Assembly: GCA_964650305.1 (NCBI GenBank)
Contig: CAZYST010000001.1
Span: 49,953-113,952 of the forward strand
Direction: 5' to 3'
DNA length: 64,000 nucleotides
Source: an uncultured Lachnospiraceae bacterium
GTDB taxonomy: Bacteria > Bacillota > Clostridia > TANB77 > CAG-508
Positions 33,327 through 62,273 of this stretch are shown piece by piece. Below the pieces are notes generated by a model, which saw nothing but the letters and a program-made list of their open reading frames with translations, ran no database searches and was not told the origin of the DNA. Both the position numbers and the translations under genes were made by a program. The stretch's first letter is position 1; every line of letters starts with the position of its first letter.

Positions 33327-33361
33327 AGCTCCAAATTTATAGTAATTTGGAGCTTTTTTTA
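33327..33361 (+). terminator. Rho-independent terminator after fic
   Basis: Perfect 10-bp stem agctccaaat/atttggagct followed by T7. Confidence 0.8.
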
Positions 33362-33403
33362 TTTAATAGTCAAAATCTGCGATTTTTCCTATTAAACAAG
33401 AAT

Positions 33404-33502: not shown

Positions 33503-33525
33503 CCGATTCTTATTTTTTAATATTT

Positions 33526-34224
33526 CTATTTATTTGATAGTATTTCAAATATTTCTTTTGCTAAAGTACATACTTTTGGTTCTATGCTATTTATTTTGCT
33601 TGTCCTATCAAGTGCTGAATATATTGATATATAACTTATTTTATTAATTATATCTTTTAGATTAGCTACATCTCTATACTTAGCTAACATATATGCTATC
33701 GCATATTTTATCATCTTAATATCATTTAAGTGAAATTGCTTTAAGTTAGTTTTTTCTACTATCTTTCCTACCTCAAAGAATGGAAATTCACCAAATCTTT
33801 CGATTATTACTTTTTTAGCTTCCCTTATATCTAAATTTGTGAATCCTGAATCTTTAAATTTGATATCTGGTAATTCTTCTAATATAGATTTATATTCTTT
33901 TGTATTTTCTAAATCTATTGTTTCGTAATATTTTATATAAGTCCTATATGGTAGATTCAAACCTTGCCATTCTTCTTCGATTAGTTCCGCATCTACTAAT
34001 TCTTTATGAATTTTAGTTGCAGTATTAGCACATATTTTTAATTCATTCATTATGTACTTTCTTGCATTTTCTATATACTTGTATCCCATTTCGTCTTGTT
34101 TTACATTGATATTTCCATTTAGCATATGCACATATATCCCATATGCTACTTTTGCATTTAAGCTTACTCCTTTTAAATATTCTCCATCAAATAAATAGTT
34201 ATAAATTTTGTATTGTTGTTGCAT
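33526..34224 (-). CDS. RepA_N-type replication initiator-like protein
   Basis: N-terminal pattern YKIYNYLFDGEYLKGVSLNAKVAYGIYVHML...LKICANTATKIHKELVDAELI fits RepA_N wHTH proteins of Firmicutes plasmids/ICEs. AGGAGG RBS 7 nt before ATG 34224. Confidence 0.55.
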   Translation of the reverse strand: MQQQYKIYNYLFDGEYLKGVSLNAKVAYGIYVHMLNGNINVKQDEMGYKYIENARKYIMNELKICANTATKIHKELVDAELIEEEWQGLNLPYRTYIKYYETIDLENTKEYKSILEELPDIKFKDSGFTNLDIREAKKVIIERFGEFPFFEVGKIVEKTNLKQFHLNDIKMIKYAIAYMLAKYRDVANLKDIINKISYISIYSALDRTSKINSIEPKVCTLAKEIFEILSNK

Positions 34225-34346
34225 AAACATTCCTCCTTTTTTCTATTCTTAAATTTTAATATCTTTTGTATCTCAAAATCTTGGATACTATCTCTCCCAC
34301 ACATCTTATTTTTTAATATCCAAGATTCTTATCTTTTGTGATTTGT

Positions 34347-34550
34347 TTATTCATTTGTTATAGAAGCTTTTTCTTTTTCATTTAAGTATTTATCTAGTGC
34401 TTCTTTTCTAAATAATACTTTTCCTCCAACTCGTGAGCATGGTATTTGTTTTCTCCTTACCAGTTGTGTAACTAACCAATATGATACTCCTAAATACTCT
34501 GCTGTCTCTTTCATTGTTAGAGTTGTTCGTGTTACTTTCTCAAGTTCCAT
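34347..34550 (-). CDS. Excisionase-family/MerR-like HTH DNA-binding protein
   Basis: LTMKETAEYLGVSYWLVTQLVRRKQIPCSRVGGKVLFRKEALDKYL. AGGTGAG RBS before ATG 34550. Confidence 0.7.
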   Translation of the reverse strand: MELEKVTRTTLTMKETAEYLGVSYWLVTQLVRRKQIPCSRVGGKVLFRKEALDKYLNEKEKASITNE

Positions 34551-34720
34551 ATTACTCACCTGCCTTTCTTGTAATTGTATTGACATTTGATGTTATTGCT
34601 AATATAATATTGTTATACAATTACTAATTATATTTTAATTGTAGGCGTACTGTTTAGTAAAGCAGACAATGAAAGATTATATAAAATAATTTTAAATTGT
34701 AGGAGCATTTAGGAGGTTTT

Positions 34721-35713
34721 ATGTTTTATTATAATATTGCATTTGATTATGAAAAAATGAATGAATTTCTTTGCTATTATACGACAAAAAATAGAAATAA
34801 TAATATTTATTCATTTACTCAAGCAACCACAAAGCAAGAACTTGGTAGCTTTTTAATAGAATTTTTAAATACTGATTTTAGAAAAAGGAAAAATTTTGAC
34901 AGCTTTGTAACAAAATATTCTTTTATTGATTTATATGCTAAATTGCTATCTAAGAAGTTTAATGAAAAATCTATTTTCTCTTTTAAGTTTACGAATGAGG
35001 AACTGCAAAATCTGTTAGATAATATGTATGAAAAATATTCTGAAGATTTTATTGTATTTGGAGAAATTTTTAGAGATATAGCAAATACCAAGAGCAGATA
35101 TAAGTTATTAAGTAATTTATCTAGAAGTGAAAATTCTAAAGTGGCTGAAACATTTGATATTAAAGCATACAACCTATCTACTAAAGATTATAGGCAACAA
35201 TTAGAAGAATACTCAGATTTATTTGATGATATATGTGTAGATTTCCGTATGATAGATTTTATAGGACTATATGAACAAAATAATATTACAAATGAAATTC
35301 CTTATTCTTTTAGAAGTAAAGACCTTTTAAATATTATATATTTATCATTTAAGCATATTGAATGTTATAAGCATCCCATTTTACAATGTGAAAATTGTAA
35401 AAAGTTATTCATACCAGACTCTGCACACGATATTAAATATTGTAATAATATATTTAAAAATAATAAGACTTGCAAGCAACTTGCACCTGAACTTAAATAT
35501 CAAAAAACTTTAAAAGCTGATCCAGTACTACAAAAATATCGTTCTAGATATCAAGCTATTCAAAGATTAGCAAGAGAAAATCCAGAAAAGCACCAAGCAT
35601 TATATGAATATTATAAAGTTGAAGGCAAAAAAATGAAAAACGAATATTTAAGTAAGGTTATAACAGCTAAAGAATTTGAAGATTGGATTGATACTACAAA
35701 AATAAGGAAGTAG
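34721..35713 (+). CDS. Hypothetical protein with a C-terminal Cys cluster (zinc-ribbon-like), element cargo
   Basis: 330 aa. CENCKKLF...YCNNIFKNNKTC. AGGAGG RBS before the ATG. A diverged remnant copy lies at 36779-36982. Confidence 0.55.
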   Translation: MFYYNIAFDYEKMNEFLCYYTTKNRNNNIYSFTQATTKQELGSFLIEFLNTDFRKRKNFDSFVTKYSFIDLYAKLLSKKFNEKSIFSFKFTNEELQNLLDNMYEKYSEDFIVFGEIFRDIANTKSRYKLLSNLSRSENSKVAETFDIKAYNLSTKDYRQQLEEYSDLFDDICVDFRMIDFIGLYEQNNITNEIPYSFRSKDLLNIIYLSFKHIECYKHPILQCENCKKLFIPDSAHDIKYCNNIFKNNKTCKQLAPELKYQKTLKADPVLQKYRSRYQAIQRLARENPEKHQALYEYYKVEGKKMKNEYLSKVITAKEFEDWIDTTKIRK

Positions 35714-35742
35714 ACTTTTAAAGTTTACTTCCTTATAACTTT

Positions 35743-36672
35743 TTATTTTAAATAATACTCTATCATATTTGCATATTGATCTTGTGCATTTAGGCAAGTA
35801 TCAATTAAAAATCCTTTCTCATTTTTATATTCTTTTAACCCTCTATAATAAAACAATTTATCTTTATCTAAAATAATAAATGGAACTATATTATTTTTTA
35901 AACATTCCTTAAATGCTATAATTCTTCCTACTCTTCCATTACCATCTTGGAATGGATGTATTCTTTCAAATTTAAAATGAAATTCTATTATTTCTTTTAT
36001 AGTTATTTTTTCTAATGTATTATACCATTCCATTAGTTTAGCCATATCTCTAGCTACATTTTTAGGAAGAGAGGTTTGTATATTTCCTGCTTCATTAGCT
36101 AATTTTTTATATTCTCCAACATTAAACCATTCTTTTCTGCTATCAGATGTTCCTTCTTTTAAAATTTTATGAAATTCTTTTATCATTTCTTCTGTTAATT
36201 TTTCTTCAGCTACATCTAGCATATAATCAACTAATTTAAAATGATTTGCTGTTTCTAATATGTCATCTACACTAGCTACTGTTTGACCTTCAAATAAAAT
36301 TGTATTAGTTTCAAAAATATATCTTGTTTGATCTTCAGTTAGTTTACTTCCCTCAATATGATTTGTGTTGTATGCAAATATAACTTGTGTATTATGATAT
36401 AAGTTTCCTTTTAGTCCCATTTCTTTTTGCTCTTTTAAGCATTCTAAAATATCTAATTTAGAAATATCAAATTTCTCATCTTCATTTTTTAATAACTCAT
36501 CTATTGTTATTCCAAATGTTTCTGCTAATCTTTTTATTGATTCTATATTCGGTTCTATCATTCCAGATTCATATTTTGATATTGTTCCTGGCTCTACTCC
36601 AAGAATTTCTGCAATATCTTTTTGAGTCATTTTTTTACTTTCTCTATATGCTTTTATTCTTTCTCCTAACAT
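35743..36672 (-). CDS. XRE-family HTH fused to a class II Fic domain
   Basis: N-terminal MTQKDIAEILGVEPGTISKYESG. Internal inhibitory motif TNHIEG ([ST]xxxE[GN]). Canonical HPFQDGNGRVGR. Confidence 0.85.
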   Translation of the reverse strand: MLGERIKAYRESKKMTQKDIAEILGVEPGTISKYESGMIEPNIESIKRLAETFGITIDELLKNEDEKFDISKLDILECLKEQKEMGLKGNLYHNTQVIFAYNTNHIEGSKLTEDQTRYIFETNTILFEGQTVASVDDILETANHFKLVDYMLDVAEEKLTEEMIKEFHKILKEGTSDSRKEWFNVGEYKKLANEAGNIQTSLPKNVARDMAKLMEWYNTLEKITIKEIIEFHFKFERIHPFQDGNGRVGRIIAFKECLKNNIVPFIILDKDKLFYYRGLKEYKNEKGFLIDTCLNAQDQYANMIEYYLK

Positions 36673-36778
36673 AATAAAATCACTCCTTTTTCGTATATTA
36701 ATATTATATCATATTATTTCCAAAAAAGAAAGTGATTATTCGCTTTTTGTTTTGTTGTTTCCATGTGAGATATTTTGA

Positions 36779-36982
36779 TATTATACCATATTCCCAAAGA
36801 ATTATTTTAATGCAATTACATCAAAATGCCCGCCCATTTTGAAATCTCATACTTGTCTAACCTCTAAATCTAACCATATATACAAGTATTATAAAAAGGA
36901 AGGTCCTGTAATACAATACAAATATAAAAACGTATTAATTTCAGTCGAACAATTTAAGATTGGATTAATAGTACAAAAATAA
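36779..36982 (+). pseudogene. Start-less, internally deleted remnant of a paralogue of ORF 34721..35713
   Basis: The open frame reads ...KCPPILKSHTCLTSKSNHIYKYYKKEGPVIQYKYKNVLISVEQFKIGLIVQK*. The intact gene reads CNNIFKNNKTCKQ...DPVLQKY...ITAKEFEDWIDTTK. The tail DNA matches about 24 of 28 nt. Confidence 0.5.
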
Positions 36983-37000
36983 AGGAACTTTACGGTTCCT

Positions 37001-37606
37001 TTATACTCCCTCATTTCTTGTTTGAAACCACTCATGATTTTCTATTCTCATATAATATACCGTTAATTTTGTATACAACATATAACATGCAAATTGTGTC
37101 AACGATGCTACTCGTTTTACAATCTCTCTATCTAAAGCTGTTTTTATAACATTACGATTAAATGCTTCACTTTGTGAAAAATCCACAAAATAATTGTCTA
37201 AAAAAGAGTTTTTAAAGCACATCTTAGCCGAATAAACATTATCCTTTAAATCTCTTTTTTCATCATCATTAAACGTACCTAAACTTATATCAAAAAGAGG
37301 CGCTATTATTATACTTTTATCACGTTGTAAATCACATGTATTACTTAATATTATGCCTTTCGTCATATATGTAGTTGTGGTTCCATCTTCATTTTTTATT
37401 GAAAATGGTATTTTATCAACAATATCTCCTTGACTCAATTCATTTAAAAGACTAGAACAAAACCAACTATGTTGAGTCATATCAATTTGTTTAACAGCAT
37501 CGCGTACTGCATTTTTAATTTCTGTATCAATTGATGGAAATAAACGATTACAATATTCACTAAAATATCTAAGCATAGTAATCAAAGAAATTATTTTTTG
37601 GTTCAA
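37001..37606 (-). CDS. Hypothetical protein, gene 3 of an unknown three-gene cassette
   Basis: 201-aa ORF that overlaps gene 2 by 38 nt, or by 8 nt if it starts at M11 (37576). No motif recognised. Confidence 0.5.
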   Translation of the reverse strand: MNQKIISLITMLRYFSEYCNRLFPSIDTEIKNAVRDAVKQIDMTQHSWFCSSLLNELSQGDIVDKIPFSIKNEDGTTTTYMTKGIILSNTCDLQRDKSIIIAPLFDISLGTFNDDEKRDLKDNVYSAKMCFKNSFLDNYFVDFSQSEAFNRNVIKTALDREIVKRVASLTQFACYMLYTKLTVYYMRIENHEWFQTRNEGV

Positions 37607-37886
37607 CAGCTAATTTTTTTATAATAACTTCTTGAGAATCTTTCTCAGATTTACCAAAAAACTTTTCATCTTTATACATTTGCATTATTAATTCTTTTTC
37701 AGACATATTACAAACATTTGCAGAAATGTAATATTTTCCATCATCTGAAAAAGTAGCATTATATATATTTTTTAATTTAAAATCATCCAAATTAATACAC
37801 CTAACATAAGCATATTCAGGCTGTGAATATTTATGAATATCTTTAGGTATATCTGCTGAACAAGAACTAAAAAACATATTGTTCAT
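37569..37886 (-). CDS. Hypothetical small protein, gene 2 of the cassette
   Basis: 105-aa ORF lying 8 nt after the gene 1 stop. The likely start is M4 (37877), given GAAAGGA RBS spacing. Confidence 0.45.
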   Translation of the reverse strand: MNNMFFSSCSADIPKDIHKYSQPEYAYVRCINLDDFKLKNIYNATFSDDGKYYISANVCNMSEKELIMQMYKDEKFFGKSEKDSQEVIIKKLAVEPKNNFFDYYA

Positions 37887-37894
37887 CCTTTCTA

Positions 37895-38647
37895 TTAATT
37901 AATCTTTCCCGTATCTACAAAAACCTCGATTTTATTTTGCAAATCATCTCTAACTGTTAAAAACATATTCTTTATGATTTCTGTATTATTAGTATAATTT
38001 TCATTACTATCAAAGCTATATTTATCATTCAACTCATAGCTTATTGAAATATACTCTTTTGTGATTGTTGCATCATTCAAAGAAATCAACGGAAATATTA
38101 TTGTATTCTGACCTGGTGTAATTTGTTTTTGCATAGTAAAATCTTTAGAATTATTAATGGTCAAAATTCTATAATATTTATTATCAATTACCATAGATGC
38201 TCTCATACCAACTTCACTAAAAGTATTTTCATTAACAGACGAATTTAAAAGATTTTGTTGTATTGTTTGAATCGGATTTTCAACTTCTTTTTCTAAATTT
38301 ACAAACACAGCAGAATATAATACTTTTACTTCTTTTGATATTAATAGATTATATATTTTACTTGCTCTCTCTTCCATATAATCTATACATTTAGAAAAAT
38401 CTTCATTAAAATTCCCATCATAATTTGTTGTTATTTGCACATTAATTGTTGACATATTAAATATAGTATGTCCTGATTTAGATTGCGAATTAATTCTAGG
38501 AACTATTGGATCTACATTGGCTGGTAATCCCATATAATTAAATGCTGGAAAGTATTCTATTAATTTAGAATTTAGCTCTTCAAAGATTCCTTTAGTATTA
38601 TCATATTTTTCAAACCAAAATGTAACAACAATATTTTTTATTTTCAT
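37895..38647 (-). CDS. Hypothetical protein, gene 1 of the cassette
   Basis: 250-aa ORF with a GGAGAATGAATAATG RBS/start. Appears to be a two-lobed beta-rich protein. No catalytic motif recognised. Confidence 0.5.
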   Translation of the reverse strand: MKIKNIVVTFWFEKYDNTKGIFEELNSKLIEYFPAFNYMGLPANVDPIVPRINSQSKSGHTIFNMSTINVQITTNYDGNFNEDFSKCIDYMEERASKIYNLLISKEVKVLYSAVFVNLEKEVENPIQTIQQNLLNSSVNENTFSEVGMRASMVIDNKYYRILTINNSKDFTMQKQITPGQNTIIFPLISLNDATITKEYISISYELNDKYSFDSNENYTNNTEIIKNMFLTVRDDLQNKIEVFVDTGKIN

Positions 38648-38895
38648 TATTCATTCTCCTTTAAATATATATCCGAAATAATTATATCATTTATTAAATA
38701 TTTTTTCCACTTTTTTTAAAAAATATTGCATTTTATACATCTTTACCATACACTTTCATATTATTTTTCCAAAACATCCGTTGTCGGTTAGACTTTTACA
38801 TATTTCACATTGTATAATTAATGTATACAATCTTTAACTTGTAATTTCATTGTAGATTACAAAAATACTCTCTCCCACACAGGAAGGAGGATAAT

Positions 38896-40096
38896 ATGGC
38901 AGGGAGTATAGAAAAAAGAGGCGAAAATACATATAGGTTAGTATATGCATGTGGGTACAACCTAGATGGTTCTATCGCCAAGTACACTAAAACAGTGCAT
39001 TGTAGTAAAAAGGAAGCAGAAATCGAACTTGCTCAGTTTGTTACTAAAATACAAAATGGTATGGTTGCTGAACCTAAGTCTATAACTTTCAAAGACTTTG
39101 TTGAAATCTGGAAACGAGATTATGGTACAAAAGATTTAGCACCTGGTACTTATGCAAGATATGTTAGAATTTTAGAAACTAGAATTCTTCCCTACTTTGG
39201 TAAGTTCAAGTTAGATAAGATTAAACCAACAGACATTATGAAATTTTATGACATGTTAGAAAATGATACACAGATCAAAAGACTTAAAAATAACAGAGGT
39301 GAAAGATTATCTAAACCACTATCTAAGAAAACTATTTTAGAACATCACAGGTTACTTAGAGCAATGCTTCACAAAGCTGTTTACTGGCAACTAATTGCAA
39401 ATAACCCAGCAGAAAGAGTTCAACTACCAAAAGCTAAGAAACCTAAAAGAAGATATTACGATGATGAACAATGCAAACTTCTATTAGAAAATCTTGAAAA
39501 TCAAGAATTAAAATACAAAGTAGCTATTACAATAACAATATTTACTGGAATGAGACTTCGGTGAACTTCTAGGACTAGAATGGTCTGATATTGATTTTAA
39601 CAATGGAATAATTAGTATTAACAAATCTAGTCAATATTTATGTGATAAAGGAATATTTACCAAGACACCTAAAACTGATAGTTCAATTAGAGATGTTGCA
39701 GTGCCTACATTTGTTATTTCTCTACTTAGTGAGTATAAGTTATGGTATGATGAACAAAAAGCTTTGTATGGCGAATTATGGATTAATTCAGATAGGTTAT
39801 TTGTACAAAACGATGGCAAACCAATGCACCCATCTACAATTAGTAAATGGTTTGTAAAATTTGTTAAAGAATGTGGTCTTCCTGAAATTAGCTTTCATGG
39901 ATTAAGACACACAAATGCTACACTACTAATATCTCAAAATATAGATGTTGCAGCTGTAGCAGCACGACTAGGACATGCACAAATTTCAACTACATTTAAT
40001 TTTTATGTGCATCCTGTTATTTCACACAATAAAGTTGCAGGAAATGTTTTAGAAAATTTATTAATACCAGGAAAAAATATAGAAAATCTAAATTGA
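38896..40096 (+). pseudogene. int: Tyrosine recombinase (phage-integrase family) disrupted by a +1 frameshift near 39556-39560
   Basis: N-terminal MAGSIEKRGENTYRLVY... The frame ends at ..FTGMRLR* (39564). It continues in the next frame as GELLGLEWSDIDFNNG...HGLRHTNATLL...LGHAQISTTFNFYVH, which supplies the R, HxxR and Y catalytic residues. Confidence 0.8.
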
Positions 40097-43203: not shown

Positions 43204-44691
43204 TTTATTTTTCTACTAATACCATTTATATGCTATAATGTTTTTTGTCTGATTAGTAGATTAGGAAAGGTTATAATTCCCTATTATATTTTGATATGAT
43301 ATAATTAAGCTATCTGGATGTACATACCTAGGCTGGTTATAATTCCCTATTATATTTTGATATGATATAATCTATTTGACTTACCTGATTTAGTAGCAGA
43401 AGTTATAATTCCCTATTATATTTTGATATGATATAATTAATAAAAATAAAATAATAACTAATATCCAGTTATAATTCCCTATTATATTTTGATATGATAT
43501 AATTTTACGCTCTGGATAATGTGTGTCGTGTCGGTTATAATTCCCTATTATATTTTGATATGATATAATTAGAGAATTCTTTTTCAGTTCTGTTAACTTG
43601 TTATAATTCCCTATTATATTTTGATATGATATAATGAAGGAATAGCACCTGTTGAAGTTCCAACAGTTATAATTCCCTATTATATTTTGATATGATATAA
43701 TTTGCTAGCTACCAATAAAGCAGCAATACAAGTTATAATTCCCTATTATATTTTGATATGATATAATCTTTCCTAATCTACTAATCAGGCATCAGACGTT
43801 ATAATTCCCTATTATATTTTGATATGATATAATACTATTCATTACAACAATTAGTACAAGAAAGTTATAATTCCCTATTATATTTTGATATGATATAATA
43901 ATTTAAGTCCAAATACAACATATTCAATAGTTATAATTCCCTATTATATTTTGATATGATATAATTTTGAAACTAAAATGTTATATTATTAATATGTTAT
44001 AATTCCCTATTATATTTTGATATGATATAATACTTATATGGTGTTTCTGCATCGTGGCTAGGTTATAATTCCCTATTATATTTTGATATGATATAATTAT
44101 GAAAACTATAGAAGATACATACAATGGGTTATAATTCCCTATTATATTTTGATATGATATAATTTGTACCATTCTCTTATTGCACTTCCTAAAGTTATAA
44201 TTCCCTATTATATTTTGATATGATATAATAAACATTAGAAATTATGGCAGAAAGTGAGGGTTATAATTCCCTATTATATTTTGATATGATATAATTAGAA
44301 AAGCTATATCTAGGTTGAAATAGTTGTTATAATTCCCTATTATATTTTGATATGATATAATTTAAAATAAGTCAATCAAATAAAATAACTTGTTATAATT
44401 CCCTATTATATTTTGATATGATATAATATCCAAATCATAATTAAAATAATATTTGACGTTATAATTCCCTATTATATTTTGATATGATATAATAAAAGCA
44501 CAATTTGAAGAAATAATGATAAGGTTATAATTCCCTATTATATTTTGATATGATATAATTTTACAAAATGGAGATTACATAACTGCTTAGTTATAATTCC
44601 CTATTATATTTTGATATGATATAATTATTAGATTGTTGTGTTAATAAACAACAAAGTTATAATTCCCTATTATATTTTGATATGATATAAT
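43204..44691 (+). CRISPR. Type II-C CRISPR array: 22 identical 36-nt repeats (43270-44691), 21 spacers of 30 nt, plus one degenerate repeat (43204-43239) and one relic 30-nt spacer
   Basis: Repeat is GTTATAATTCCCTATTATATTTTGATATGATATAAT with an exact 66-nt period. The strand is assigned from the TGATATAAT extended -10 box at the 3' end of each repeat and from the predicted tracrRNA polarity. Confidence 0.97.
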
Positions 44692-44788: not shown

Positions 44789-45109
44789 TTAAAAAAACGA
44801 TAAAGTTTCATAATCTACTGGTTTATCATAAATAGATTTTCTTCCTAATAAAATTTCAACACTCTCATACTGTCTTTCAGTTATTACCAATACTCTTATT
44901 GCACCTTCATCAGGAATATTCATTTTCAATCTTTGTTTATGTAATTCTACCATATCATTTCCATTGCAAACTCTTGCATATACAGAAAATTGTATCATAT
45001 AGTATCCATCTTTTAATAAAAAATTTCTAAATTGAGTAGCTTTCCTTCTTTCTTGTTTAGTTTTAACTGGTAAATCAAAAAATACTAATATTCTCATAAA
45101 TTTATGCAT
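44789..45109 (-). CDS. cas2: CRISPR-associated endoribonuclease Cas2
   Basis: MRILVFFDLPVKTKQERR...FSVYARVC ferredoxin-like Cas2 pattern. Overlaps the cas1 stop. Confidence 0.9.
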   Translation of the reverse strand: MHKFMRILVFFDLPVKTKQERRKATQFRNFLLKDGYYMIQFSVYARVCNGNDMVELHKQRLKMNIPDEGAIRVLVITERQYESVEILLGRKSIYDKPVDYETLSFF

Positions 45110-46007
45110 ACCTATACTCTTCTATTGGAGTTATAATATATGGTAATTTTATAAAATTTTTTCCTTTATTTATACTTGTTGAATAACTTTTTATCATATA
45201 TTCAATAGCTCCCTGAACATTAAATTTTTTACCATCTATTAAAACCAAACAATTAATTAAATTATATAAAATCTTTTTATCTTCTGGCATTAAAAATTTT
45301 TTACTAAAATCTATATTTGAAACAACATATAAATCTACAAGTGGTCTAAAACACTCGATAAAATCATCTGCAAGATTAAAATTATTTAATTGATTATGAT
45401 GAAATATTCCTAATGCTGGCTCAAATCCATACATTATCAAAGTTCTAGCAATCATTCCTCTAATAATTGCATAACCATAATTTAATGAAGCATTTTCTAT
45501 GCATTCAATATTTCTATTAAAAGTCCTTCCAAATAATTCTCTAAAATAAAATGACGCTGCTTTTGCTTCAACATTTTTCGTATCACCTGATGTAATTCCT
45601 TTTTTCATTTCTTCAAGAATATTATAATGTTTTCTTCCTAGATATTTTAAAACATCTGCTTGATTTTGAATTTTTACATTTATAATATCTTGCCATATAC
45701 GTTTATTTAAAGGCTTTGGAATTCCAAATTGTAATTTAATGTTTTTTAATTGCCTTGAATAATTATTTGTGCCTATCAATATCCCAGTTGGTAAATGTTT
45801 TTCATCACAAATATAAACTACTATATCATGTTCTATAAATTTTCTTAAAGCATATGTGCTTACATTTGTTCTTTGAGATTCAATGCAAATACTATTAATA
45901 TCTTCTAATGGTATTTTATATTCTGCATTTTCTTTTTGTACTATTAATTGTTCATTTTTTATTTTTATATGAACATCATTTTGTACATAAACATTTCTAA
46001 AAGCCAT
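45102..46007 (-). CDS. cas1: CRISPR-associated endonuclease Cas1 (type II)
   Basis: 301 aa. ...NASLNYGYAIIRG...GIFHHNQLNNFNLADDFIECFRP contains the Cas1 active-site region. Confidence 0.92.
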   Translation of the reverse strand: MAFRNVYVQNDVHIKIKNEQLIVQKENAEYKIPLEDINSICIESQRTNVSTYALRKFIEHDIVVYICDEKHLPTGILIGTNNYSRQLKNIKLQFGIPKPLNKRIWQDIINVKIQNQADVLKYLGRKHYNILEEMKKGITSGDTKNVEAKAASFYFRELFGRTFNRNIECIENASLNYGYAIIRGMIARTLIMYGFEPALGIFHHNQLNNFNLADDFIECFRPLVDLYVVSNIDFSKKFLMPEDKKILYNLINCLVLIDGKKFNVQGAIEYMIKSYSTSINKGKNFIKLPYIITPIEEYRYA

Positions 46008-46084
46008 ATTTTCGCTTAAAACATTTATCTATATTTTGATATACAATAGATGCTTTAAGATAAATATGAAAGCTTCCCTCCCTT

Positions 46085-49000
46085 CTATTTTTTAATATTG
46101 AAAGGTAATCTTTTTTCTGGTAGTTTTACTTTACTATAATTTCCTAAAATATCAACTGTATATTTTTCTAATATTTTTAACTCTTTTATTCCAATTTTCT
46201 TTACATATTTATTATCATGTGTTTGAATATTTATCACTGCATTAGAAATATCCGCTTTAACATAATATGCAAAAACTTCATCTACTTCAATTGTTTTATT
46301 TTCTTTATTATTTGGATTTAACTTTATTTTATTTTTTCCTACTATATGTATCAAATCTTTTGGATATATAGAAAATATAAAGTTTTCATCGTTCATTTCT
46401 TTCCATTGAGCATATGGTTTTCCACCTACACAAGTTTTATTTGGCAACACATCTTTTACAACATCTGATACATATATTGGTATAAAATAATATCCTTCAT
46501 TTTCTACATAAAAAATGTCTAATCTTACACAATCTCCATTTCCAGCAATTGATTTTCCTTCATTAAATTCTACTCCTAAAGTCATTTTTTCTTCTATTTT
46601 TACTTTTTTTACCAAAGGTCCTTTAGTGCCATCTGCTTTAGGTTTATAAAAATCTTCCTTAAAAGCTTGTTCTGCATTTCCATTAAATTTTATTAATTGT
46701 TCTTTTAATGCATTATATAATAATTTATCATCTTGTTTACATTTTTCTGGATATCCTTCTATTTCTCCGTTTTTTAATTTCAATTTTTTTAGTTCTGTTT
46801 TAGTAACAGATTTTATAGAATCCTCTTCTTTTTTCACTCCTCTAACAGTATCTAAGTGTGCAACACCTGTTACTTTTCTTCTTGGCATTTTTGAAACAAA
46901 TATTGGTTCCAATTCATCTATTTTTTCTTCTGTATCATATGTATAAATTTTTTCTGCTGCTAAGCATTCTATCATTCTTTCTTTTGTTTGACAGTTTGTT
47001 CTTATATCTAATTCTTTTCTAAATTTATCCCATGGCTCTGGAAAAGTTTTTTTGTTTTTTTCTTCATATTCTTTTGCTGTCAATACTTCTCCTGTTAATA
47101 TATCTACATATTCTCCATTATTTTGCATATATCTTCCGTCTCTGTATTGATAATAATTAGTAATTTCATTTATCATTTTTTGAGTAGTAATGGCAATTAT
47201 TGTAGCATCTATCGCATGATGTATATCTCCATCTTCTCTTATTTTTTCAATACCTAATCTTTTTCTTATATGAGATGTAATTTGTCCATTTACAGTCCAA
47301 ACTTTTCTTTCAAAATTATCATTATTTGAAAATTCTAAATGGTTTCTTATTAGGTTATACATAATTTTACATATATATTGAGTGTCCTTTAAGTTTCTTT
47401 CTTTCCATCCTTCTATATCTTCTTTATCTACTTGTTGTTTTAGTAGTTTTCGTTTCTTGGCTGGATTTTTTACAATATTGTTTATTCTTATTTCATATTC
47501 ATCTAAATTTCTTCCTGCTTCTTTTTCATATTGATATGGAACTCTATTTCCTTTTTGTCTGTTTTCACTAGCTAAAACTAAAACTTTATTACTATATGAA
47601 TCATCAAAACACATACTATATGGAATAATATGATCTACATCAACTGCTTCTGTAAATAAATCATTAATTGATATAGTTTTTCCTGAATATAAACAAATAT
47701 TTTGTTGTTCTTTCCATAATTTGAATTTTACTATATCTTGACCTGTAGGATTTTTCTTATATTCCATTATTGTTTTCAAAGCATTTTCATTTTTTTTCAT
47801 ATTTTCTTCTTGCGATTTTTGTATTTTATTTCTGTCTTGGAAATTTTTTCCTATTTCTCTTGCTAATTCTATTACTACTACATCTGGTTTTCCATATATA
47901 CTGTTATATTTTAATGTTATTGCATTTAATACTTTTATTGATTGAGATACTGCTCTTCTTACAACTGGATTAGATATTTCTTGTTCTAAATCTTTTAACT
48001 TTAATTTAGATTTTTTTACAGTATTTACAGTTCCTCTAAAATCTTCATAAACATTATCTACTGCTTTATCGTATGTATATCCTTTTTCTAGTTCTGGAAT
48101 TATTTTTTTCATTGCTTTTATTGATAAACTTCCTACTTTTGAAAAAGATAATGGTAACACTTCATTTATAGCTTCATCTGACAAATTTGTATTTTCTTTT
48201 AAATAATTTATTCTTTTCTCATCATTTTTATATATTGTTAATGCATATCCTAAAAAATCTAAATCTTCTTTTGATATTTTTTCAATATAATTTTTTTCTA
48301 TATGATTTAATGCAGTTTTTAATTTATTATAGCTTTCAAATTCCTTTAGTTTTCTTTCTTTTTCAACTTCTTTATTGCTTTCTTCTGAAAAATCTATTGA
48401 ACTTTTGTATGTTATTAAATTAAATCTTTCATAATTAGATAAATTTAATTCTTTTCTAATATTATCAAAAGTTACTGTGCTTTTTGATAATATTAAATTT
48501 TTTATTTTTTCCTTTTCTTCTTTTGTTAATTCTCTTTTTTCAACCTTTTTTTCTTTGCAATCATTTATTATTGTTTTTTCTATTTTTATATGATTTAACA
48601 TTTGTAATAATTTAAAATATTCAAAAGTATATGTTGCTTTTGCCGCTCTTTTTTCTTCCTTTTCAAATGTACAGTTTCCTAACATTTTTTCTATTTGGTT
48701 TCCACCATATGGACTTTCTTCTCCTGGTCCATCGTCAAAATTTCTTTGTCCTTCGAAAATTTCCAAATATTCTTTTATAAATTCATCAGTTACAAATGAA
48801 TTTAATTCTTTTTGTTTATTTAATATTAAAATTATTTCATCTACTAACAATTTTCTTAATGTTGTATTTTTATAGTCATCTACTGAATTTTTAATTTTTA
48901 TTTGTGTATTTCCTTTTGAATCTAAAATATATTCTCCATTTTTATTTTTGAATTTGAATTTATCATCTTTTAAATACATTTCTGCAACAGTTCTATAATT

Positions 49001-49486
49001 TTTATTTTTCATTAAATCAGCATTTTCTTTAGTTGCTGTTAATAGTTGTCCTGCTTCTTTATTTGATTCTTCAGATTTACTATTAGATTTATAACCTCTT
49101 TTTTTCACAAAACTTATTAAAACTCTTGCTAATTCTTTATTAGTTAATTTCTCATCTAATCCTTGCACTCTTAATTCGTATACATTATATTGAAATTTAT
49201 AATTTTCATACATATCTTCTATTTCTTTTTTAGAAATAATATTATATCTTTCTAAAAGACGTTTGGTTCTTTCTATTCTATGTTTTTTTCTTCGTAATCT
49301 ACGACGTAATCCTCTTTTATCTCTTCTATCTTTAGCTAATGGTGAACCGTCTTTAGGTTTTTCAGCAGCATCAAATATTCTACTTCCTAAATCAATGATT
49401 CTTATTGGATTTCCTTTCATATCATCTTCTATTACTGCCCACCCTACTGATGTAATTCCAATATCTAATCCTATTCTATATCCCAT
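46085..49486 (-). CDS. cas9: Cas9, compact type II-C-like (about 1133 aa)
   Basis: RuvC-I YRIGLDIGITSVGWAV. Arg-rich bridge helix RRDKRGLRRRLRRKKHR. HNH DVDHIIPYS...N. RuvC-III HHAIDA. GGGAGG RBS 4 nt before ATG 49486. No csn2 or cas4 is present in the locus. Confidence 0.95.
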   Translation of the reverse strand: MGYRIGLDIGITSVGWAVIEDDMKGNPIRIIDLGSRIFDAAEKPKDGSPLAKDRRDKRGLRRRLRRKKHRIERTKRLLERYNIISKKEIEDMYENYKFQYNVYELRVQGLDEKLTNKELARVLISFVKKRGYKSNSKSEESNKEAGQLLTATKENADLMKNKNYRTVAEMYLKDDKFKFKNKNGEYILDSKGNTQIKIKNSVDDYKNTTLRKLLVDEIILILNKQKELNSFVTDEFIKEYLEIFEGQRNFDDGPGEESPYGGNQIEKMLGNCTFEKEEKRAAKATYTFEYFKLLQMLNHIKIEKTIINDCKEKKVEKRELTKEEKEKIKNLILSKSTVTFDNIRKELNLSNYERFNLITYKSSIDFSEESNKEVEKERKLKEFESYNKLKTALNHIEKNYIEKISKEDLDFLGYALTIYKNDEKRINYLKENTNLSDEAINEVLPLSFSKVGSLSIKAMKKIIPELEKGYTYDKAVDNVYEDFRGTVNTVKKSKLKLKDLEQEISNPVVRRAVSQSIKVLNAITLKYNSIYGKPDVVVIELAREIGKNFQDRNKIQKSQEENMKKNENALKTIMEYKKNPTGQDIVKFKLWKEQQNICLYSGKTISINDLFTEAVDVDHIIPYSMCFDDSYSNKVLVLASENRQKGNRVPYQYEKEAGRNLDEYEIRINNIVKNPAKKRKLLKQQVDKEDIEGWKERNLKDTQYICKIMYNLIRNHLEFSNNDNFERKVWTVNGQITSHIRKRLGIEKIREDGDIHHAIDATIIAITTQKMINEITNYYQYRDGRYMQNNGEYVDILTGEVLTAKEYEEKNKKTFPEPWDKFRKELDIRTNCQTKERMIECLAAEKIYTYDTEEKIDELEPIFVSKMPRRKVTGVAHLDTVRGVKKEEDSIKSVTKTELKKLKLKNGEIEGYPEKCKQDDKLLYNALKEQLIKFNGNAEQAFKEDFYKPKADGTKGPLVKKVKIEEKMTLGVEFNEGKSIAGNGDCVRLDIFYVENEGYYFIPIYVSDVVKDVLPNKTCVGGKPYAQWKEMNDENFIFSIYPKDLIHIVGKNKIKLNPNNKENKTIEVDEVFAYYVKADISNAVINIQTHDNKYVKKIGIKELKILEKYTVDILGNYSKVKLPEKRLPFNIKK

Positions 49487-49499
49487 AAAACCTCCCATA

Positions 49500-49664: not shown

Positions 49665-49746
49665 TAACTCTCCATATTTAAATTATACCACACTTTTATT
49701 TTTCTTAGGAAAAATATTACTTTTTACGTTCAATTTGTACTATTTT

Positions 49747-49808: not shown

Positions 49809-50447
49809 ATGAAAAACAAGACTTTTACAACCAGAGACATCATTGACCTCGCAAAAGGACGGATCACACCTTGTATAAAGGTGGAAACTCAGAACATCGT
49901 GTTCCCTCATTGGTCTGATTTGGGCCTTCTCGGACTTATGTTCCGCCAGTGCATTGTTACAAAAGAACAGCCTGATGGACATATTTACGACGAGTCTTCT
50001 TTCCAGCCTGTTCTCCGCATTTTGGACGGAAAAGTTCTTATGAACAACAAAACCGATTCTTATGCGTGGAAGTTTTCCAAGCTTGGAAGTGCCAAAAATA
50101 TTGGCGTCATTGGAACCGCTACTGCTGAAGGGCTTATTAGCTTAGCTACTGTCTTAAGCAGTATTTCCGATGATCAAGAAAAAGCCCTCGTTGCTGGCAT
50201 GTTTGCCAATTTCAACAAGAATTTGCAACTTGTCACAACTCCTGCCGAAAAGCGTGTTTGCATTGAAGTTACCAAAGATCTTTATGATGCTGGATTGACT
50301 TTCTGTGTAGACGAATGGGCAGAAACCGATGAGAATGGTTATGCTGAGGAAACTATCCTCAACATTGGCGACTTTTTGATTGTCACTTCTTATGGCGTAT
50401 ATTGCATTCGCCGTGAAGAATTTTTGACAACTCATAAATTCGCTTAA
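49809..50447 (+). CDS. Hypothetical 212-aa protein encoded by a GC-rich (about 40-45% by hand count) foreign segment
   Basis: Clean ORF with a strong promoter, RBS and terminator. Composition contrasts sharply with the flanks. No motif recognised. Confidence 0.75.
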   Translation: MKNKTFTTRDIIDLAKGRITPCIKVETQNIVFPHWSDLGLLGLMFRQCIVTKEQPDGHIYDESSFQPVLRILDGKVLMNNKTDSYAWKFSKLGSAKNIGVIGTATAEGLISLATVLSSISDDQEKALVAGMFANFNKNLQLVTTPAEKRVCIEVTKDLYDAGLTFCVDEWAETDENGYAEETILNIGDFLIVTSYGVYCIRREEFLTTHKFA

Positions 50448-58939: not shown

Positions 58940-59963
58940 TAATTCAGATAACTTAATTAAAAATGAATGTAACCAAATAAAAAGTCAAATTAAACCTTCT
59001 GATGAACTTATTGATAAAACTATTTTAAAAGTGCGAAAAGTGCAAGAAGAACGTACATACAAAAAGCAAAAAACAAAAAAACTTTTAACAAAAGTTTTAG
59101 GTACTTTTACAACTGTAGTTATTTTAGCAGAAGGTGCTACTTTTGCATTTAAAAAGCAAACTTCTTTAGACATGCTTTTTTCAACTATTGATAAAGGTAT
59201 AGAAACTGCTCTTGAATATGGCAATATAAAAAACGTAGATATGGACTATATTGAAATTGAAAGCGGATTAAAGGTAAAAGCAGAATTTGCTTTAATAAAC
59301 GAATATAATTTTGATTTAGTTTTAAGATTTAGTGGAATTGAAGAATATTGTTCAAACACAAATATTAATAATATTAATCAAATTTTATTAAAAGACCTTG
59401 AAGTTACTGACAATTTTGAAAATTATTATACATTCTATACCATATCGCCAAATTATATATCATCATATTTAAGTGCATCTTCAGTAAAATTAGAAAATGA
59501 TGTTTATTATATATTGCATTGCTATAATGAAAATAATTCCTTTCCAGCAACTAATATTGAAAATATAAATATTTCTTTTTCAGAAATATCAATAGATAAT
59601 TATTATTTAAAACATGATATTAATTTTAATATTGAATTTAACAATTTAAATTTAGATAATAATTCAACAAATTTCGAAATTACAAATAAACCAGATTATA
59701 TAGAAAATTATAATATTGTTCTTTCAAGTACAAATCTTAAAGTAGAATTATTTTTTAATACATCTAGTTCGATCAACAAAGATTCTGTTTACTTAAAAGA
59801 TAATAATAGAAATATTTATTATCCTAATAATGATTTTAGATTTAGAGATGATTATATTTTATTTGTATTTCCTGTTAGTAATTATCAAGAAATAGAAAAA
59901 TTAAAATTAAATTTTGAAATAAATAATAATAAAGAAAAATTAAAACTTACAAAACAAAGCTAG
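58932..59963 (+). CDS. Putative anti-sigma factor (single-pass membrane protein)
   Basis: Overlaps the end of the sigma gene. Short cytoplasmic N-terminus, one TM (LGTFTTVVILAEGATFAF), and an N/Y-rich extracytoplasmic domain. Confidence 0.55.
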   Translation: MNNNSDNLIKNECNQIKSQIKPSDELIDKTILKVRKVQEERTYKKQKTKKLLTKVLGTFTTVVILAEGATFAFKKQTSLDMLFSTIDKGIETALEYGNIKNVDMDYIEIESGLKVKAEFALINEYNFDLVLRFSGIEEYCSNTNINNINQILLKDLEVTDNFENYYTFYTISPNYISSYLSASSVKLENDVYYILHCYNENNSFPATNIENINISFSEISIDNYYLKHDINFNIEFNNLNLDNNSTNFEITNKPDYIENYNIVLSSTNLKVELFFNTSSSINKDSVYLKDNNRNIYYPNNDFRFRDDYILFVFPVSNYQEIEKLKLNFEINNNKEKLKLTKQS

Positions 59964-59990
59964 GATAAAATCCTAGCTTTGCTATTATAG

Positions 59991-60009
59991 TGAGAAACAG
60001 CAAAAATAT
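59991..60009. repeat. Left arm of a perfect 19-bp inverted repeat bracketing ORF 60047..60529
   Basis: tgagaaacagcaaaaatat is the exact reverse complement of 60555-60573. Confidence 0.95.
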
Positions 60010-60046
60010 TATTACTAACTATTTTTTATTGTTTCAATTTTTAAAT

Positions 60047-60529
60047 TTACTGCCAAGTATAATATGTTACAGTTGCTTTAATTGTGGCACCTGTAAAATT
60101 AAATACTCTTATAATGTAGGTGCTTTCTGCATTTAAGGAAATCCAATCTTCTTTTTGGGTTGTTCCATCTGGATTGATATACACCGATCTAATGATTTCA
60201 CCATCATCATAAAAATTGGTAAGGAATTTTCCTGTTGCCACACCACTTGTAACTACAGCTTTTGTTTCAAATGCTGCATAATTATACATCGTAGCAAAGC
60301 ACGCAGCCATAATTTCTGCACCATTTTCCATTTCTTTTTCTCTCTGATCCCATAATTGTGGAGATACTCCATCATCTTCTTCAATAGGGGGAATTTCAAT
60401 TTCAACTACATGAACTTCCGCATTTTCTGGGATACCTTCTGGCCAATCGCTTTCTGATGCAAAAGCAGTACACGGCATAATCATTGTAACAATCATCAGA
60501 ATAGCTAAAAATACACTCATTTTTTTCAT
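60047..60529 (-). CDS. Small secreted protein (signal peptide ...CTAFA|SES), GC-elevated
   Basis: 160 aa. AGGAGG RBS 8 nt before the ATG. Beta-rich C-terminal half. Confidence 0.7.
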   Translation of the reverse strand: MKKMSVFLAILMIVTMIMPCTAFASESDWPEGIPENAEVHVVEIEIPPIEEDDGVSPQLWDQREKEMENGAEIMAACFATMYNYAAFETKAVVTSGVATGKFLTNFYDDGEIIRSVYINPDGTTQKEDWISLNAESTYIIRVFNFTGATIKATVTYYTWQ

Positions 60530-60554
60530 ACTGCATACCTCCTAAAATGTTTAT

Positions 60555-60573
60555 ATATTTTTGCTGTTTCTCA
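60555..60573. repeat. Right arm of the 19-bp inverted repeat (11 nt upstream of the RBS)
   Basis: atatttttgctgtttctca. Confidence 0.95.
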
Positions 60574-60713
60574 AACTACTCTTTGTTCACTCTTAAACAT
60601 AATTATGAGTATTAATGAACTTAGAGTAAAATTAATTAGTTACACAATAATATTATCAAAATTCAAATTAATTTTGGAAAAATATTACTTTTTTTCAGTA
60701 AAATATTTTTAAT

Positions 60714-60760
60714 TTAAAAAAGTGATAAGTCATTCAAAAAATAATTTATCACTTTTTTCG
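60714..60760 (-). terminator. Terminator-like hairpin after ORF 60782..61372
   Basis: 9-bp stem aagtgataa/ttatcactt (60720-60754) with a 17-nt loop, flanked by A- and T-runs. Confidence 0.5.
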
Positions 60761-60781: not shown

Positions 60782-61372
60782 TTATAAATTAGGTTTTTCA
60801 ACATCTTCATCTTTTACAATACCTTCTAACATATAAGATGAGTATTGATAAATTTGTAATTCTTTTAACATACTTACTGTATGTACTACAAATCCTGTAT
60901 CTTTATTTACTATTTTTCTATCTCTTCGAAGATTTATCACATAACAATCATTAATAGTGTTTATGTATCTAAAAATATTTGATTTTATTGCCTCTTCGAA
61001 AGTTGCTTCTTCAAATAATAATTTAAAATCACCATCTTCTAAATTAGGATTTTCACTAAATACTGGTTCCCTTTTCTGGTATGTTCCATCATCTGCAAGT
61101 TCATATTCAATAAATTCTTGTGTATTTAAATTTCCCCACATCAATGTAAGCATTTTTCCATTTTGAGAAAATTTATAATTGTATTTACCATCTTTATATA
61201 AAATTTCATATTCTTGAATATAATTGTCACCTATTTTATGAATTACTTTTGTATATAAATTAGTTGCATTTTCTAGGAATCCGTCTGTTTCGTTATAAAT
61301 TTCTTTTAAAATTTTATAATTTCTAAAAAAATTTAATCCAAATAAAATTAATAGCACCACTAAAATTATCAA
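60782..61372 (-). CDS. Membrane-anchored hypothetical protein
   Basis: 196 aa from a TTG start. The GGGAGGG RBS lies 34 nt upstream and only ATA/ATT codons are at RBS distance, so the start is uncertain. Confidence 0.5.
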   Translation of the reverse strand: MIILVVLLILFGLNFFRNYKILKEIYNETDGFLENATNLYTKVIHKIGDNYIQEYEILYKDGKYNYKFSQNGKMLTLMWGNLNTQEFIEYELADDGTYQKREPVFSENPNLEDGDFKLLFEEATFEEAIKSNIFRYINTINDCYVINLRRDRKIVNKDTGFVVHTVSMLKELQIYQYSSYMLEGIVKDEDVEKPNL

Positions 61373-61487
61373 ACTAGTTTTTAAAATCTTATTTTTTATT
61401 TTATTCCCTCCCTTTTATATTATACATCTAAATTATATAGATTACTATATACTTTTATAAAGGAGAATGAAAAAACTCATCCCCCGC

Positions 61488-61503
61488 AAATTAAATGCAC
61501 ACA
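61488..61503. repeat. Left arm of a perfect 16-bp inverted repeat bracketing ORF 61531..61968
   Basis: aaattaaatgcacaca is the exact reverse complement of 61990-62005. Confidence 0.95.
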
Positions 61504-61530
61504 ATAAAATAATTGCTATGTTTTCAATTC

Positions 61531-61968
61531 TTAATTTACAAAATTACATGTAAGTTGAGATAAGGTACAATTAGATGGAGACACTCTTAATGTAACAGTA
61601 TAAGTACCACTTGGAAGGGTTACTCCCATTTTTTCATTATAAGTACCTCCATCACAAACAAAAGAAAGTGAATACACTGTATTGGTGGAATTGTTTTTGA
61701 AGTTAAAAACATATACTCCAGAATTTCCTTTTGAGAGAACACCTGTATAACTCTTAGTAGTTGAATTTATTTTTGCATCTTTACTAAGTGTTACTGTAAG
61801 TGATGAAGTATTTGTTTTCCAAACAAATCCATTTGTAGACCTTGCTTGCTCATACGTTGATTGCATTTCTTTTGTTTCATTTTCCATTGCAAATGCAACA
61901 TTCGAAAACGTGCAAATGCACATAATTGATACTAAACACATACAAATTGTTTTTCTTAAAATTGTCAT
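61531..61968 (-). CDS. Small secreted protein (signal peptide ...NVAFA|MEN), GC-elevated
   Basis: AGGAGG RBS 6 nt before ATG 61968 (MTILRKTICM...). T/S/N-rich beta protein. Confidence 0.7.
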   Translation of the reverse strand: MTILRKTICMCLVSIMCICTFSNVAFAMENETKEMQSTYEQARSTNGFVWKTNTSSLTVTLSKDAKINSTTKSYTGVLSKGNSGVYVFNFKNNSTNTVYSLSFVCDGGTYNEKMGVTLPSGTYTVTLRVSPSNCTLSQLTCNFVN

Positions 61969-61989
61969 AATATTCCTCCTGTTCATGTA

Positions 61990-62005
61990 TGTGTGCATTT
62001 AATTT
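61990..62005. repeat. Right arm of the 16-bp inverted repeat (10 nt upstream of the RBS)
   Basis: tgtgtgcatttaattt. Confidence 0.95.
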
Positions 62006-62273
62006 TCTTCTTTGTACATCATAAATATTCTTTTATGATAACAAAAGAAGTTTGTTCATAAAACTTATACCATATGAACACTTATATTATACACCTATAT
62101 TTTTTTGATGCACAAAATATTACTTTTTTCAACAAAGTATTTTAAATTTTTAAAAACAATAAATTATTTTTTGAATAATTTGTCACTTTTTTCGTTATTA
62201 TGTAATTATAATATGAAAATAATAAAAAAGATGCATTAATTAATTTAATACATCTTTTTAACAAAGGAGGCTT

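Follow-up and report, generated by a model that had tools for sequence, protein, structure and literature searches.

The window, i.e. the whole 64-kb stretch of DNA that was analysed (GC 24.6%), carries on its minus strand a gene for a 160-aa secreted protein, which is convergent with an anti-sigma gene and is bracketed by an inverted repeat. The sequence TGAGAAACAGCAAAAATAT occupies 59991-60009, and 60555-60573 carries its exact reverse complement, with 545 nt between the two arms. This perfect 19-bp repeat encloses the complete coding sequence (CDS) together with its ribosome-binding site, as the preliminary description of this DNA had reported. The spacing given there, 11 nt upstream of the ribosome-binding site and about 38 nt after the stop, was borne out on the minus strand, where 11 nt separate the end of the 5' arm from the Shine-Dalgarno (SD) sequence AGGAGG and the 3' arm begins 38 nt past the stop codon. 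The gene had also been described as richer in GC than its flanks, and this was confirmed: its GC content is 0.354, compared with 0.15-0.21 in the flanks, and it ranks second of 60 against an average gene GC of 0.254. No Pfam family was found for the 160-aa protein. Its AlphaFold model showed a beta jelly-roll with a pLDDT of 76, and the fold matches of this model in the PDB were weak, generic (Ena, PirA, CBMs) and uninformative. The positions of all features, together with the arms of the repeat in related lineages, are listed in Table 1.

Table 1 Features of the 160-aa gene and the neighbouring 145-aa gene in the window, and arms of the repeat in the lineages that carry it
Feature	Position	Strand	Details
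Predicted sigma-A-type promoter	60650..60693	minus	Upstream motif AAAAAGTAATATTTT 60679-60693; -35 TTTCCA 60675-60680; -10 GATAAT/TGATAATAT 60650-60658; promoter scan
Leader hairpin	60577..60628	minus	Ends 3 nt before 5' arm; palindrome, MFE and centroid folds
5' arm of predicted long-range helix	60555..60573	minus	UGAGAAACAGCAAAAAUAU in mRNA; 11 nt upstream of SD
Shine-Dalgarno AGGAGG	60538..60543	minus	8 nt before ATG; outside helix
CDS, 160-aa secreted protein	60047..60529	minus	Signal peptide plus beta jelly-roll or sandwich; fast-evolving (24-61% identity among orthologues)
3' arm of predicted long-range helix	59991..60009	minus	AUAUUUUUGCUGUUUCUCA in mRNA; 38-56 nt after stop; 9 nt before terminator hairpin
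Intrinsic terminator hairpin	59944..59981	minus	CAAAGCUAGGAU-UUU-AUCCUAGCUUUG then UUUUGU; -21 kcal/mol in folds; conserved among relatives
Second instance, 5' arm	61990..62005	minus	AAAUUAAAUGCACACA; directly after leader hairpin, 8 nt before SD
Second instance, CDS of 145-aa orphan secreted protein	61531-61968	minus	
Second instance, 3' arm	61488..61503	minus	UGUGUGCAUUUAAUUU; 28-43 nt after stop, 2 nt before own terminator hairpin
Second instance, terminator hairpin of 145-aa gene	61462-61487	minus	
Arms, WIN (window copy)/L009			5' the 19-bp perfect arm UGAGAAACAGCAAAAAUAU; 3' its exact complement
Arms, L002 group			5' UUGGAGGGAAACAGC; 3' GCUGUUUUCCUCUAA
Arms, L003 group			5' UUUGAGGGGAACAGC; 3' GCUGUUUCCCUUAAA
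Arms, L018			5' UUAAGAGGAGAACAGC; 3' GCUGUUCUCUUCUUGA
Arms, L026			5' AGGAAGGAAAAUGGGAACAGA; 3' UCUGUUCCCAUUUUUCUUUUU
Arms, L021/L024			5' GAAUAGUGAGAAUAUGAG; 3' CUUCAUAUUUCUCACUAUUC

The promoter-like region had been placed outside the bracket, and the predicted sigma-A-type promoter was indeed found upstream of the 5' arm, with a predicted transcription start site (TSS) near 60645, about 72 nt upstream of the arm. The motif AAAAAGTAATATTTT and the extended -10 were kept in all lineages, those lacking the repeat included, and the same motif recurred at 62114-62128 upstream of the neighbouring 145-aa gene. The leader hairpin that precedes the 5' arm has in its loop a conserved core of about 30 nt, which is CAWTAGTATTCATAATTAGGTYT-like and is matched by 60595-60614. 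This hairpin occupied the same place in 6/6 repeat-carrying lineages, and RNAalifold showed compensatory changes in 6 of the 8 pairs of its stem. On the other side of the gene, the 3' arm formed a conserved island within an otherwise poorly conserved 3'UTR. The terminator hairpin behind it was called from the folds, a simple terminator scan having missed it; it overlaps the stop codon (59961-59963) of the convergent anti-sigma gene, and its plus strand is without a good U tract. It was the sole terminator-like hairpin and it sits beyond the 3' arm, with the predicted promoter upstream of the 5' arm, so that the predicted transcript should hold both arms. The preliminary description had pointed out that no RNA duplex could form if transcripts ended before the distal arm; the ends predicted here place the terminator past it. 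Rfam gave no match at the gathering threshold in the window, and at E<=1 only a spurious tmRNA match was seen in 59900-60720.

First-order Markov simulations were used to evaluate the repeat statistically. The expectation per 64 kb was about 0.009 perfect inverted repeats with arms of 19 bp or more and a gap of 100-700 nt, which scales to about 0.3 per 2-Mb genome of the window's composition. The earlier statement that such a repeat is far beyond chance therefore holds for the 64-kb window and is overstated for a genome-wide scan. No third copy of an arm was present in the 64-kb window when up to 3 mismatches were allowed. The complementarity between the 5' and 3' flanks of genes was compared as well, and none of 2000 cross-gene pairings reached 16 nt (maximum 15 nt), against 19 nt for the 160-aa gene and 16 nt for its neighbour. 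These two adjacent genes were the only ones among 59 window genes whose flank complementarity lay above all 2000 cross-gene controls, the neighbour standing out once its start codon had been corrected. RNAduplex analysis of 64 genes showed no general shift such as would be expected if UTR pairing were habitual throughout the genome; the mean was -18.0 for own pairs and -18.2 for cross pairs. Taken alone, the 19-bp repeat was suggestive and not decisive against chance; the decisive evidence came from the comparison of related loci.

The neighbouring 145-aa gene represents a second instance of this arrangement. Its 16-bp arms are unrelated in sequence to the arms of the 160-aa gene, and the order of the elements is identical, namely leader hairpin, arm, SD, CDS, arm and terminator. 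When the full-length predicted RNA of this gene was folded, the long-range helix appeared in both the MFE and the centroid structure. No relationship could be detected between the 145-aa and the 160-aa protein, and no homologues of the 145-aa protein were found, leaving it an orphan.

The exact 160-aa protein was also found on Logan contig L001, which is identical to the window. Using homologues of the secreted protein and of its convergent anti-sigma-like neighbour, 26 further contigs (L002-L027) were collected, and nine lineages were distinguished. Across the contigs, the identity of the 160-aa protein to the window copy ranged from 96% down to 24%. The same kind of search, with the secreted protein and an anti-sigma profile as queries, brought up nothing related to this locus among GTDB representative genomes or in JGI metagenomes. 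The 160-aa gene was syntenic beside the anti-sigma-like gene in all lineages. With its GC of 24.6%, the genome has a Bacillota-like character; more distant relatives were observed to carry cotJ and spore genes, and the distant repeat-carrying lineages had no adjacent sigma gene.

Six lineages (WIN/L009, the L002 group, the L003 group, L018, L021/L024 and L026) have retained the inverted repeat at both of its positions, and it persisted in lineages whose protein is only 24-29% identical. In all six, the 5' arm lies downstream of the conserved promoter and directly after the leader hairpin, and 0-9 nt separate the 3' arm from the terminator hairpin that follows it, while the distance from the stop codon to the 3' arm varies between 6 and 52 nt. 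The anatomy of the unit is thus constant. Two orthologous lineages, L008 and L020, had neither the repeat nor the long leader with its hairpin, which indicated that the repeat is dispensable.

The arms of five deep lineages were aligned without gaps (alignment A5), giving a 15-pair helix; the alignment was anchored on the invariant ACAG/CUGU core and thereby leans towards structure. As a result, 96% of cells were paired and changes had occurred on both sides in 10 of the 15 pairs. None of 500 shuffles matched the observed values, and sliding the partner by 1-3 columns reduced pairing to 45-57%. The compensatory changes, as seen in five lineages with a self-anchored alignment, indicated that pairing rather than sequence is under selection. 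Such conservation with covariation in orthologous loci, in addition to the 0/2000 cross-gene pairings at 16 nt, ruled out chance as the origin of the repeat.

The full-length predicted mRNAs of three lineages were then folded, and the long-range helix was present in the MFE and centroid structures of all three (3/3). Its ensemble pair probability was 0.86-0.98 in eight sequences, with a mean of 0.98 for the 5' arm of the window. The helix dominates these predicted folds, long-range pairs in 700-nt thermodynamic folds being unreliable on their own. In the six lineages the SD always lies outside the helix, whose end is 11-45 nt upstream of it. When the 3'UTR was added, the predicted accessibility of the SD dropped from 0.85 to 0.48 in WIN and from 0.75 to 0.47 in L003, and the other six sequences changed by at most 0.08. 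This shift was inconsistent, so no direct effect on translation can be inferred from it.

In a repeat that acts at the DNA level, G·U-type and A·C-type mismatches are expected to be equally frequent. The transition mismatches inside the helices, read in the sense RNA, amounted to about 11 G·U or U·G versus one A·C (L024), a small count that is partly prone to ascertainment, since an A·C at the end of a helix is scored as outside the helix, and that becomes about 7-9 versus 1 when internal mismatches only are taken. L002, L003 and L018 each had two of the G·U or U·G pairs, L026 had three and L021 had one, and a further one was found in a distal helix common to L002 and L003. In every imperfect lineage the sense duplex was more stable than the antisense duplex, for example -49.8 vs -32.6 and -29.3 vs -23.9 kcal/mol. 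The wobbles fit the sense strand only. This strand asymmetry, the constant anatomy at variable distances and the folding results point to an RNA on the sense strand and not to a DNA repeat.

We consider it probable that the two arms are the halves of one intramolecular RNA helix, an hbs-type long-range pairing of the 5'UTR with the 3'UTR, which would govern RNase access and mRNA stability. A duplex of the 5' and 3' UTRs in the mRNA had been offered in the preliminary description as the alternative to a gene switch, and the comparative and folding evidence came down in its favour. According to this clamp model, transcription would begin at the conserved sigma-A-type promoter about 72 nt upstream of the 5' arm, and RNA polymerase would then pass the leader hairpin, followed by the 5' arm, the SD and the CDS, before it transcribes the 3' arm, shortly ahead of the intrinsic terminator. 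The 3' arm would pair with the waiting 5' arm and close the whole coding region into a loop, and the long-range helix of 15-21 bp would meet the leader hairpin and the terminator hairpin at a junction of three helices. By analogy with hbs, the helix might gate the access of ribonucleases, with RNase Y and J1 acting on the 5' side and 3' exonucleases or RNase III on the duplex, and this gating might set the lifetime of the mRNA and the amount of secreted protein. The transcript ends, the pairing in vivo and the effect on decay are what we infer for this mRNA. Because the SD lies outside the helix and its accessibility did not change consistently, a clamp for stability or processing is favoured. 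In L018 and L026 the 3' arm begins only 6-8 nt after the stop codon, so that a terminating ribosome should transiently melt the arm, and in these two lineages the clamp could be coupled to translation.

The closest known case is the hbs mRNA of B. subtilis, in which a 14-nt segment just past the leader hairpin pairs with a segment just before the terminator, and compensatory mutations showed that cleavage by RNase Y is restrained by this pairing, which also influences decay from both ends (PMC5737220). The element described here is like hbs (Braun, Durand & Condon 2017, PMC5737220) in occurring in Firmicutes, in its predicted pairing of 5'UTR and 3'UTR within one molecule, in the similar length of the helix and in leaving the SD outside the helix; in six lineages it also has the 5' segment directly after the leader hairpin and the 3' segment directly before the terminator. 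It differs in that the helix has 15-21 bp instead of 14 bp, in that the gene is unrelated, and in that the clamp here is a prediction from sequence. Furthermore, lineages that diverged deeply have conserved the present helix, with covariation, whereas for hbs the 3'UTR element was reported to be non-conserved among close relatives (PMC7821165), and functional 3'UTR elements of such kind are generally not conserved between related species (reviewed in PMC7821165).

A bolder version of the clamp, which we put forward tentatively and hold to be rather doubtful, is that the leader hairpin with its conserved loop of about 30 nt, the long-range helix and the terminator together make up a previously undescribed split cis-regulatory RNA, which would loop small secreted-protein mRNAs and would be reused at two adjacent genes with unrelated arms. 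A factor dedicated to this RNA, which could be RNase Y, RNase III, an RNA-binding protein or an sRNA at the conserved loop, would recognise it and couple expression of the fast-evolving secreted protein to the convergent sigma/anti-sigma module, and the RNA would be the first covariation-supported bacterial mRNA end-to-end clamp.

The main functional rival to a clamp for stability or processing is cleavage by RNase III. The inverted repeats that flank 16S and 23S rRNA form stalks which are cut by this enzyme, and the same helix could serve here as a processing stalk, cleavage of the 15-21-bp duplex detaching the leader and the terminator hairpin in the course of maturation or decay. Consistent with this, the duplex is perfect over 19 bp in the window and 21 bp in L026, and the whole functional unit is bracketed; as in rRNA stalks, the complementary flanks would pair and close the whole gene product into a loop, although the product here is a protein-coding mRNA and the stem is much shorter. 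A UTR duplex is known to be an RNase III substrate in icaR (PMC3868564; PMC7821165). However, the duplex of several lineages is down to 11-16 bp and contains wobbles or a bulge, a short substrate for RNase III, and the hbs-type helix, of similar length, works through RNase Y. We therefore regard a role as an RNase III stalk as unlikely.

In icaR, the 3'UTR masks the SD through a UCCCC anti-SD motif and creates an RNase III site (PMC3868564; PMC7821165). The present element is like icaR (2013, PMC3868564) in that the 3'UTR would pair with the 5'UTR of the same mRNA, in being a potential RNase III substrate and in coming from a low-GC Gram-positive. Translational control of this type, with the 3'UTR folding back to mask or unmask the ribosome-binding site, would be in line with the CCUC/CUCU in the 3' arms of L002, L003 and L018, the resemblance of the 5' arms to a pseudo-SD (GGAGG), and the drop in predicted SD accessibility in WIN and L003. 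It is made very unlikely by the position of the helix, which ends upstream of the SD by the 11-45 nt given above, whereas UCCCC masks the ribosome-binding site in icaR, and by the near-constant accessibility in the six other sequences; pairing of the 3'UTR with the SD region was not found. An antiterminator was considered too, the 3' arm region being able to pair with the 5' half of the terminator in L002/L003, and was rejected, as this pairing is not conserved in the window.

The preliminary description had put first an invertible whole-gene switch. In this reading, the arms would be the sites of a trans-encoded invertase, and a flip of 60010-60554 would uncouple the gene from its promoter and put it behind the ECF sigma/anti-sigma operon. 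After such an inversion, the junctions CTATTATAG+arm+ATAAACATTTTAGGAGG and AGTTAGTAATA+arm'+AACTACTC would be expected. The locus resembles invertons (PMC11892184, PMC11602134, bioRxiv 10.1101/2023.03.11.532203) in its short inverted repeats around a segment of a few hundred bp with a surface- or secreted-protein gene, and the perfect repeat around the ribosome-binding site and CDS, with the promoter outside, speaks for a switch. Moreover, the plus-strand side of the shared terminator is without a U tract, so that read-through from the anti-sigma gene is conceivable. A neighbouring 196-aa gene did invert between lineages: its orientation in the L002, L015 and L003 lineages is opposite to that in WIN/L009, and in L009 a palindromic terminator flanks it on both sides as two copies inverted to each other (41 nt, 88%). 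This is a fixed difference between lineages in which the 160-aa gene is not involved.

For the 160-aa gene, in contrast, a single orientation, convergent with the anti-sigma-like gene, was seen in more than 50 assembled contigs from nine lineages, similar places included in the count; a rare minority orientation may escape such contigs. Had two orientations coexisted, the k=31 assembly graph would branch at the outer edge of an arm, but contig L012 starts 9 nt inside the 5' arm. A Pfam sweep of the 64-kb window revealed no invertase. The preliminary description was right that no recombinase is encoded nearby: the only candidate was a split phage-type integrase (38896-39564 + 39701-40096) 20 kb away, which sits in an integrated island with Fic, RepA_N and HTH genes. 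The arm sequences are free to covary, with no recombinase motif kept constant, their mismatches can form wobble pairs on just one of the strands, a bias that DNA recombination leaves unexplained, and both arms always fall within the predicted transcript, beside RNA hairpins. The invertible whole-gene switch is thus unsupported by this evidence, and we give it hardly any probability.

The remaining reading, which takes the arms for a chance repeat, the ends of a MITE or IS remnant, or paired DNA operator sites, has in its favour the roughly 0.3 such repeats expected per 2-Mb genome and the unusually high GC of the 160-aa gene, and is the least probable of all, given that complementarity was kept with compensatory changes in six lineages at a locus that is syntenic everywhere, that the arms are limited to two copies in 64 kb with no match in plasmids, phages and viral contigs (which also answers the earlier concern that they might be termini of a multi-copy MITE or IS), that their edges show no target-site duplication or direct repeat, and that sequence inspection revealed no ECF-type -10 at a consistent distance from the GAAC-like core. 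A mobile cassette was likewise rejected, since neither the divergent tract between L021 and L024 nor the 540-bp indel between the window and L009 is bounded by the arms. The core of the arms, GAAAC/GGAAC, is similar to an ECF -35, but an ECF promoter was rejected because no CGT-type -10 occurs at consistent spacing in either direction, the SD would be too close, and a sigma gene is not adjacent in the distant repeat-carrying lineages.

Only a handful of bacterial mRNAs are, to our knowledge, known to pair their own 5' and 3' UTRs (hbs, icaR and RNAIII/hld). The probable mRNA clamp described here is a new and unusually well-conserved member of these rare bacterial 5'UTR-3'UTR interactions, and its design is repeated at the next gene. 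The pairing has been retained with compensatory changes although identity of the protein encoded between the arms has fallen to about 24%, and the gene next door has the same design with different sequences. Inverton predictors that work without reads and look for inverted repeats around genes would report RNA clamps of this kind as false positives. If confirmed, the element would provide a covariation-supported and experimentally tractable case of end-to-end pairing in a bacterial mRNA.

A 15-mer, AAAAAGTAATATTTT, was found exactly three times in the window, always on the minus strand, with one copy upstream of the 160-aa secreted-protein gene. The motif adjoins the -35 region and was kept in all orthologous loci; the related contig L002 carries it twice in divergent orientation. 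It may act as an UP element or as an activator site common to these genes. Downstream of it, the loop of the leader hairpin (60577-60628, match at 60595-60614) holds a ~30-nt core that is CAWTAGTATTCATAATTAGGTYT-like and partly palindromic (CATAATTATG). The core sequence was kept across lineages in which the proteins share only ~28% identity, and no Rfam family matched it. The core may serve as an operator or as a site of RNA binding.

The same anatomy recurs next to the 160-aa gene. An orphan gene for a 145-aa secreted protein has its own 16-bp repeat between 5'UTR and 3'UTR, with an arrangement matching that around the 160-aa gene. It lies within a 540-bp indel (window 61457-61996) relative to strain L009, which is 98-99% identical. 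The junction of this deletion or insertion falls within the 5' arm of the 145-aa gene.

The neighbouring 196-aa gene, together with its promoter, showed an orientation flipped between lineages, being co-directional in the window's own lineage and L009 and divergent in the related contigs L002, L015 and L003. In L009, two inverted copies of a palindromic terminator (41 nt, 88%) were observed, one on each side of the 196-aa gene segment, with their loops flipped relative to one another. The start codon of this 196/205-aa gene is ATG in L009 and ATA in the window (61397-61399), so that the window ORF could start only at a downstream TTG. The gene may therefore be impaired in the window strain.

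Locations of the features compared (window positions unless a contig is named)
Feature	Location	Strand	Remark
AAAAAGTAATATTTT copy	60679-60693	minus	upstream of 160-aa secreted-protein gene
AAAAAGTAATATTTT copy	62114-62128	minus	upstream of gene pair neighbouring the 160-aa gene
AAAAAGTAATATTTT copy	49711-49725	minus	~215 nt upstream of cas9
Orphan 145-aa secreted-protein gene	61531-61968		arms 61990-62005 / 61488-61503
196-aa gene segment compared	60782-61475		vs L015:2029-2724 and L003:3378-3673
Repeats flanking 196-aa gene segment	60732-60749 / 62159-62176		L009:1894-1934 / 2779-2819
CRISPR array	43271-44690		
cas2, cas1, cas9	44789-49498	minus	
212-aa ORF	49809-50447		just upstream of cas9

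Also in the window is a CRISPR locus of type II whose repeat is 36 nt long. Directly beyond the far end of its array, a 21-nt stretch matches the first part of an internal spacer exactly, in reverse complement (43249-43269 / 43768-43788), indicating two spacer-like units from one protospacer on opposite strands. The adjacent 212-aa ORF ranks first in the window for GC content (0.418; GC3 0.408; gene mean 0.254), had no Pfam match and is probably foreign DNA. A probable integrated mobile island (32600-40096) contains two Fic-domain genes, a RepA_N-like gene, an HTH regulator, DUF6076 and a phage-type tyrosine integrase; the integrase is divided between two ORFs (38896-39564 and 39701-40096) and is apparently a pseudogene.

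On the side of the convergent operon, the shared terminator hairpin (window 59955-59981, plus strand) includes the anti-sigma stop codon. Because it has no plus-strand U tract, transcripts that start from the ECF sigma/anti-sigma operon may run on into the antisense of the 160-aa secreted-protein gene. Two related contigs were also compared. L021:3904-4620 showed 42-82% identity to the homologous L024 region over ~720 bp, between flanks that were ~100% identical, and this tract spans the secreted-protein CDS, its 3'UTR, the terminator and, in the convergent anti-sigma-like gene, the final ~130 nt. It appears that the secreted protein was swapped jointly with its neighbour's C-terminus, which suggests that the secreted protein and the anti-sigma-like protein are co-evolving partners.
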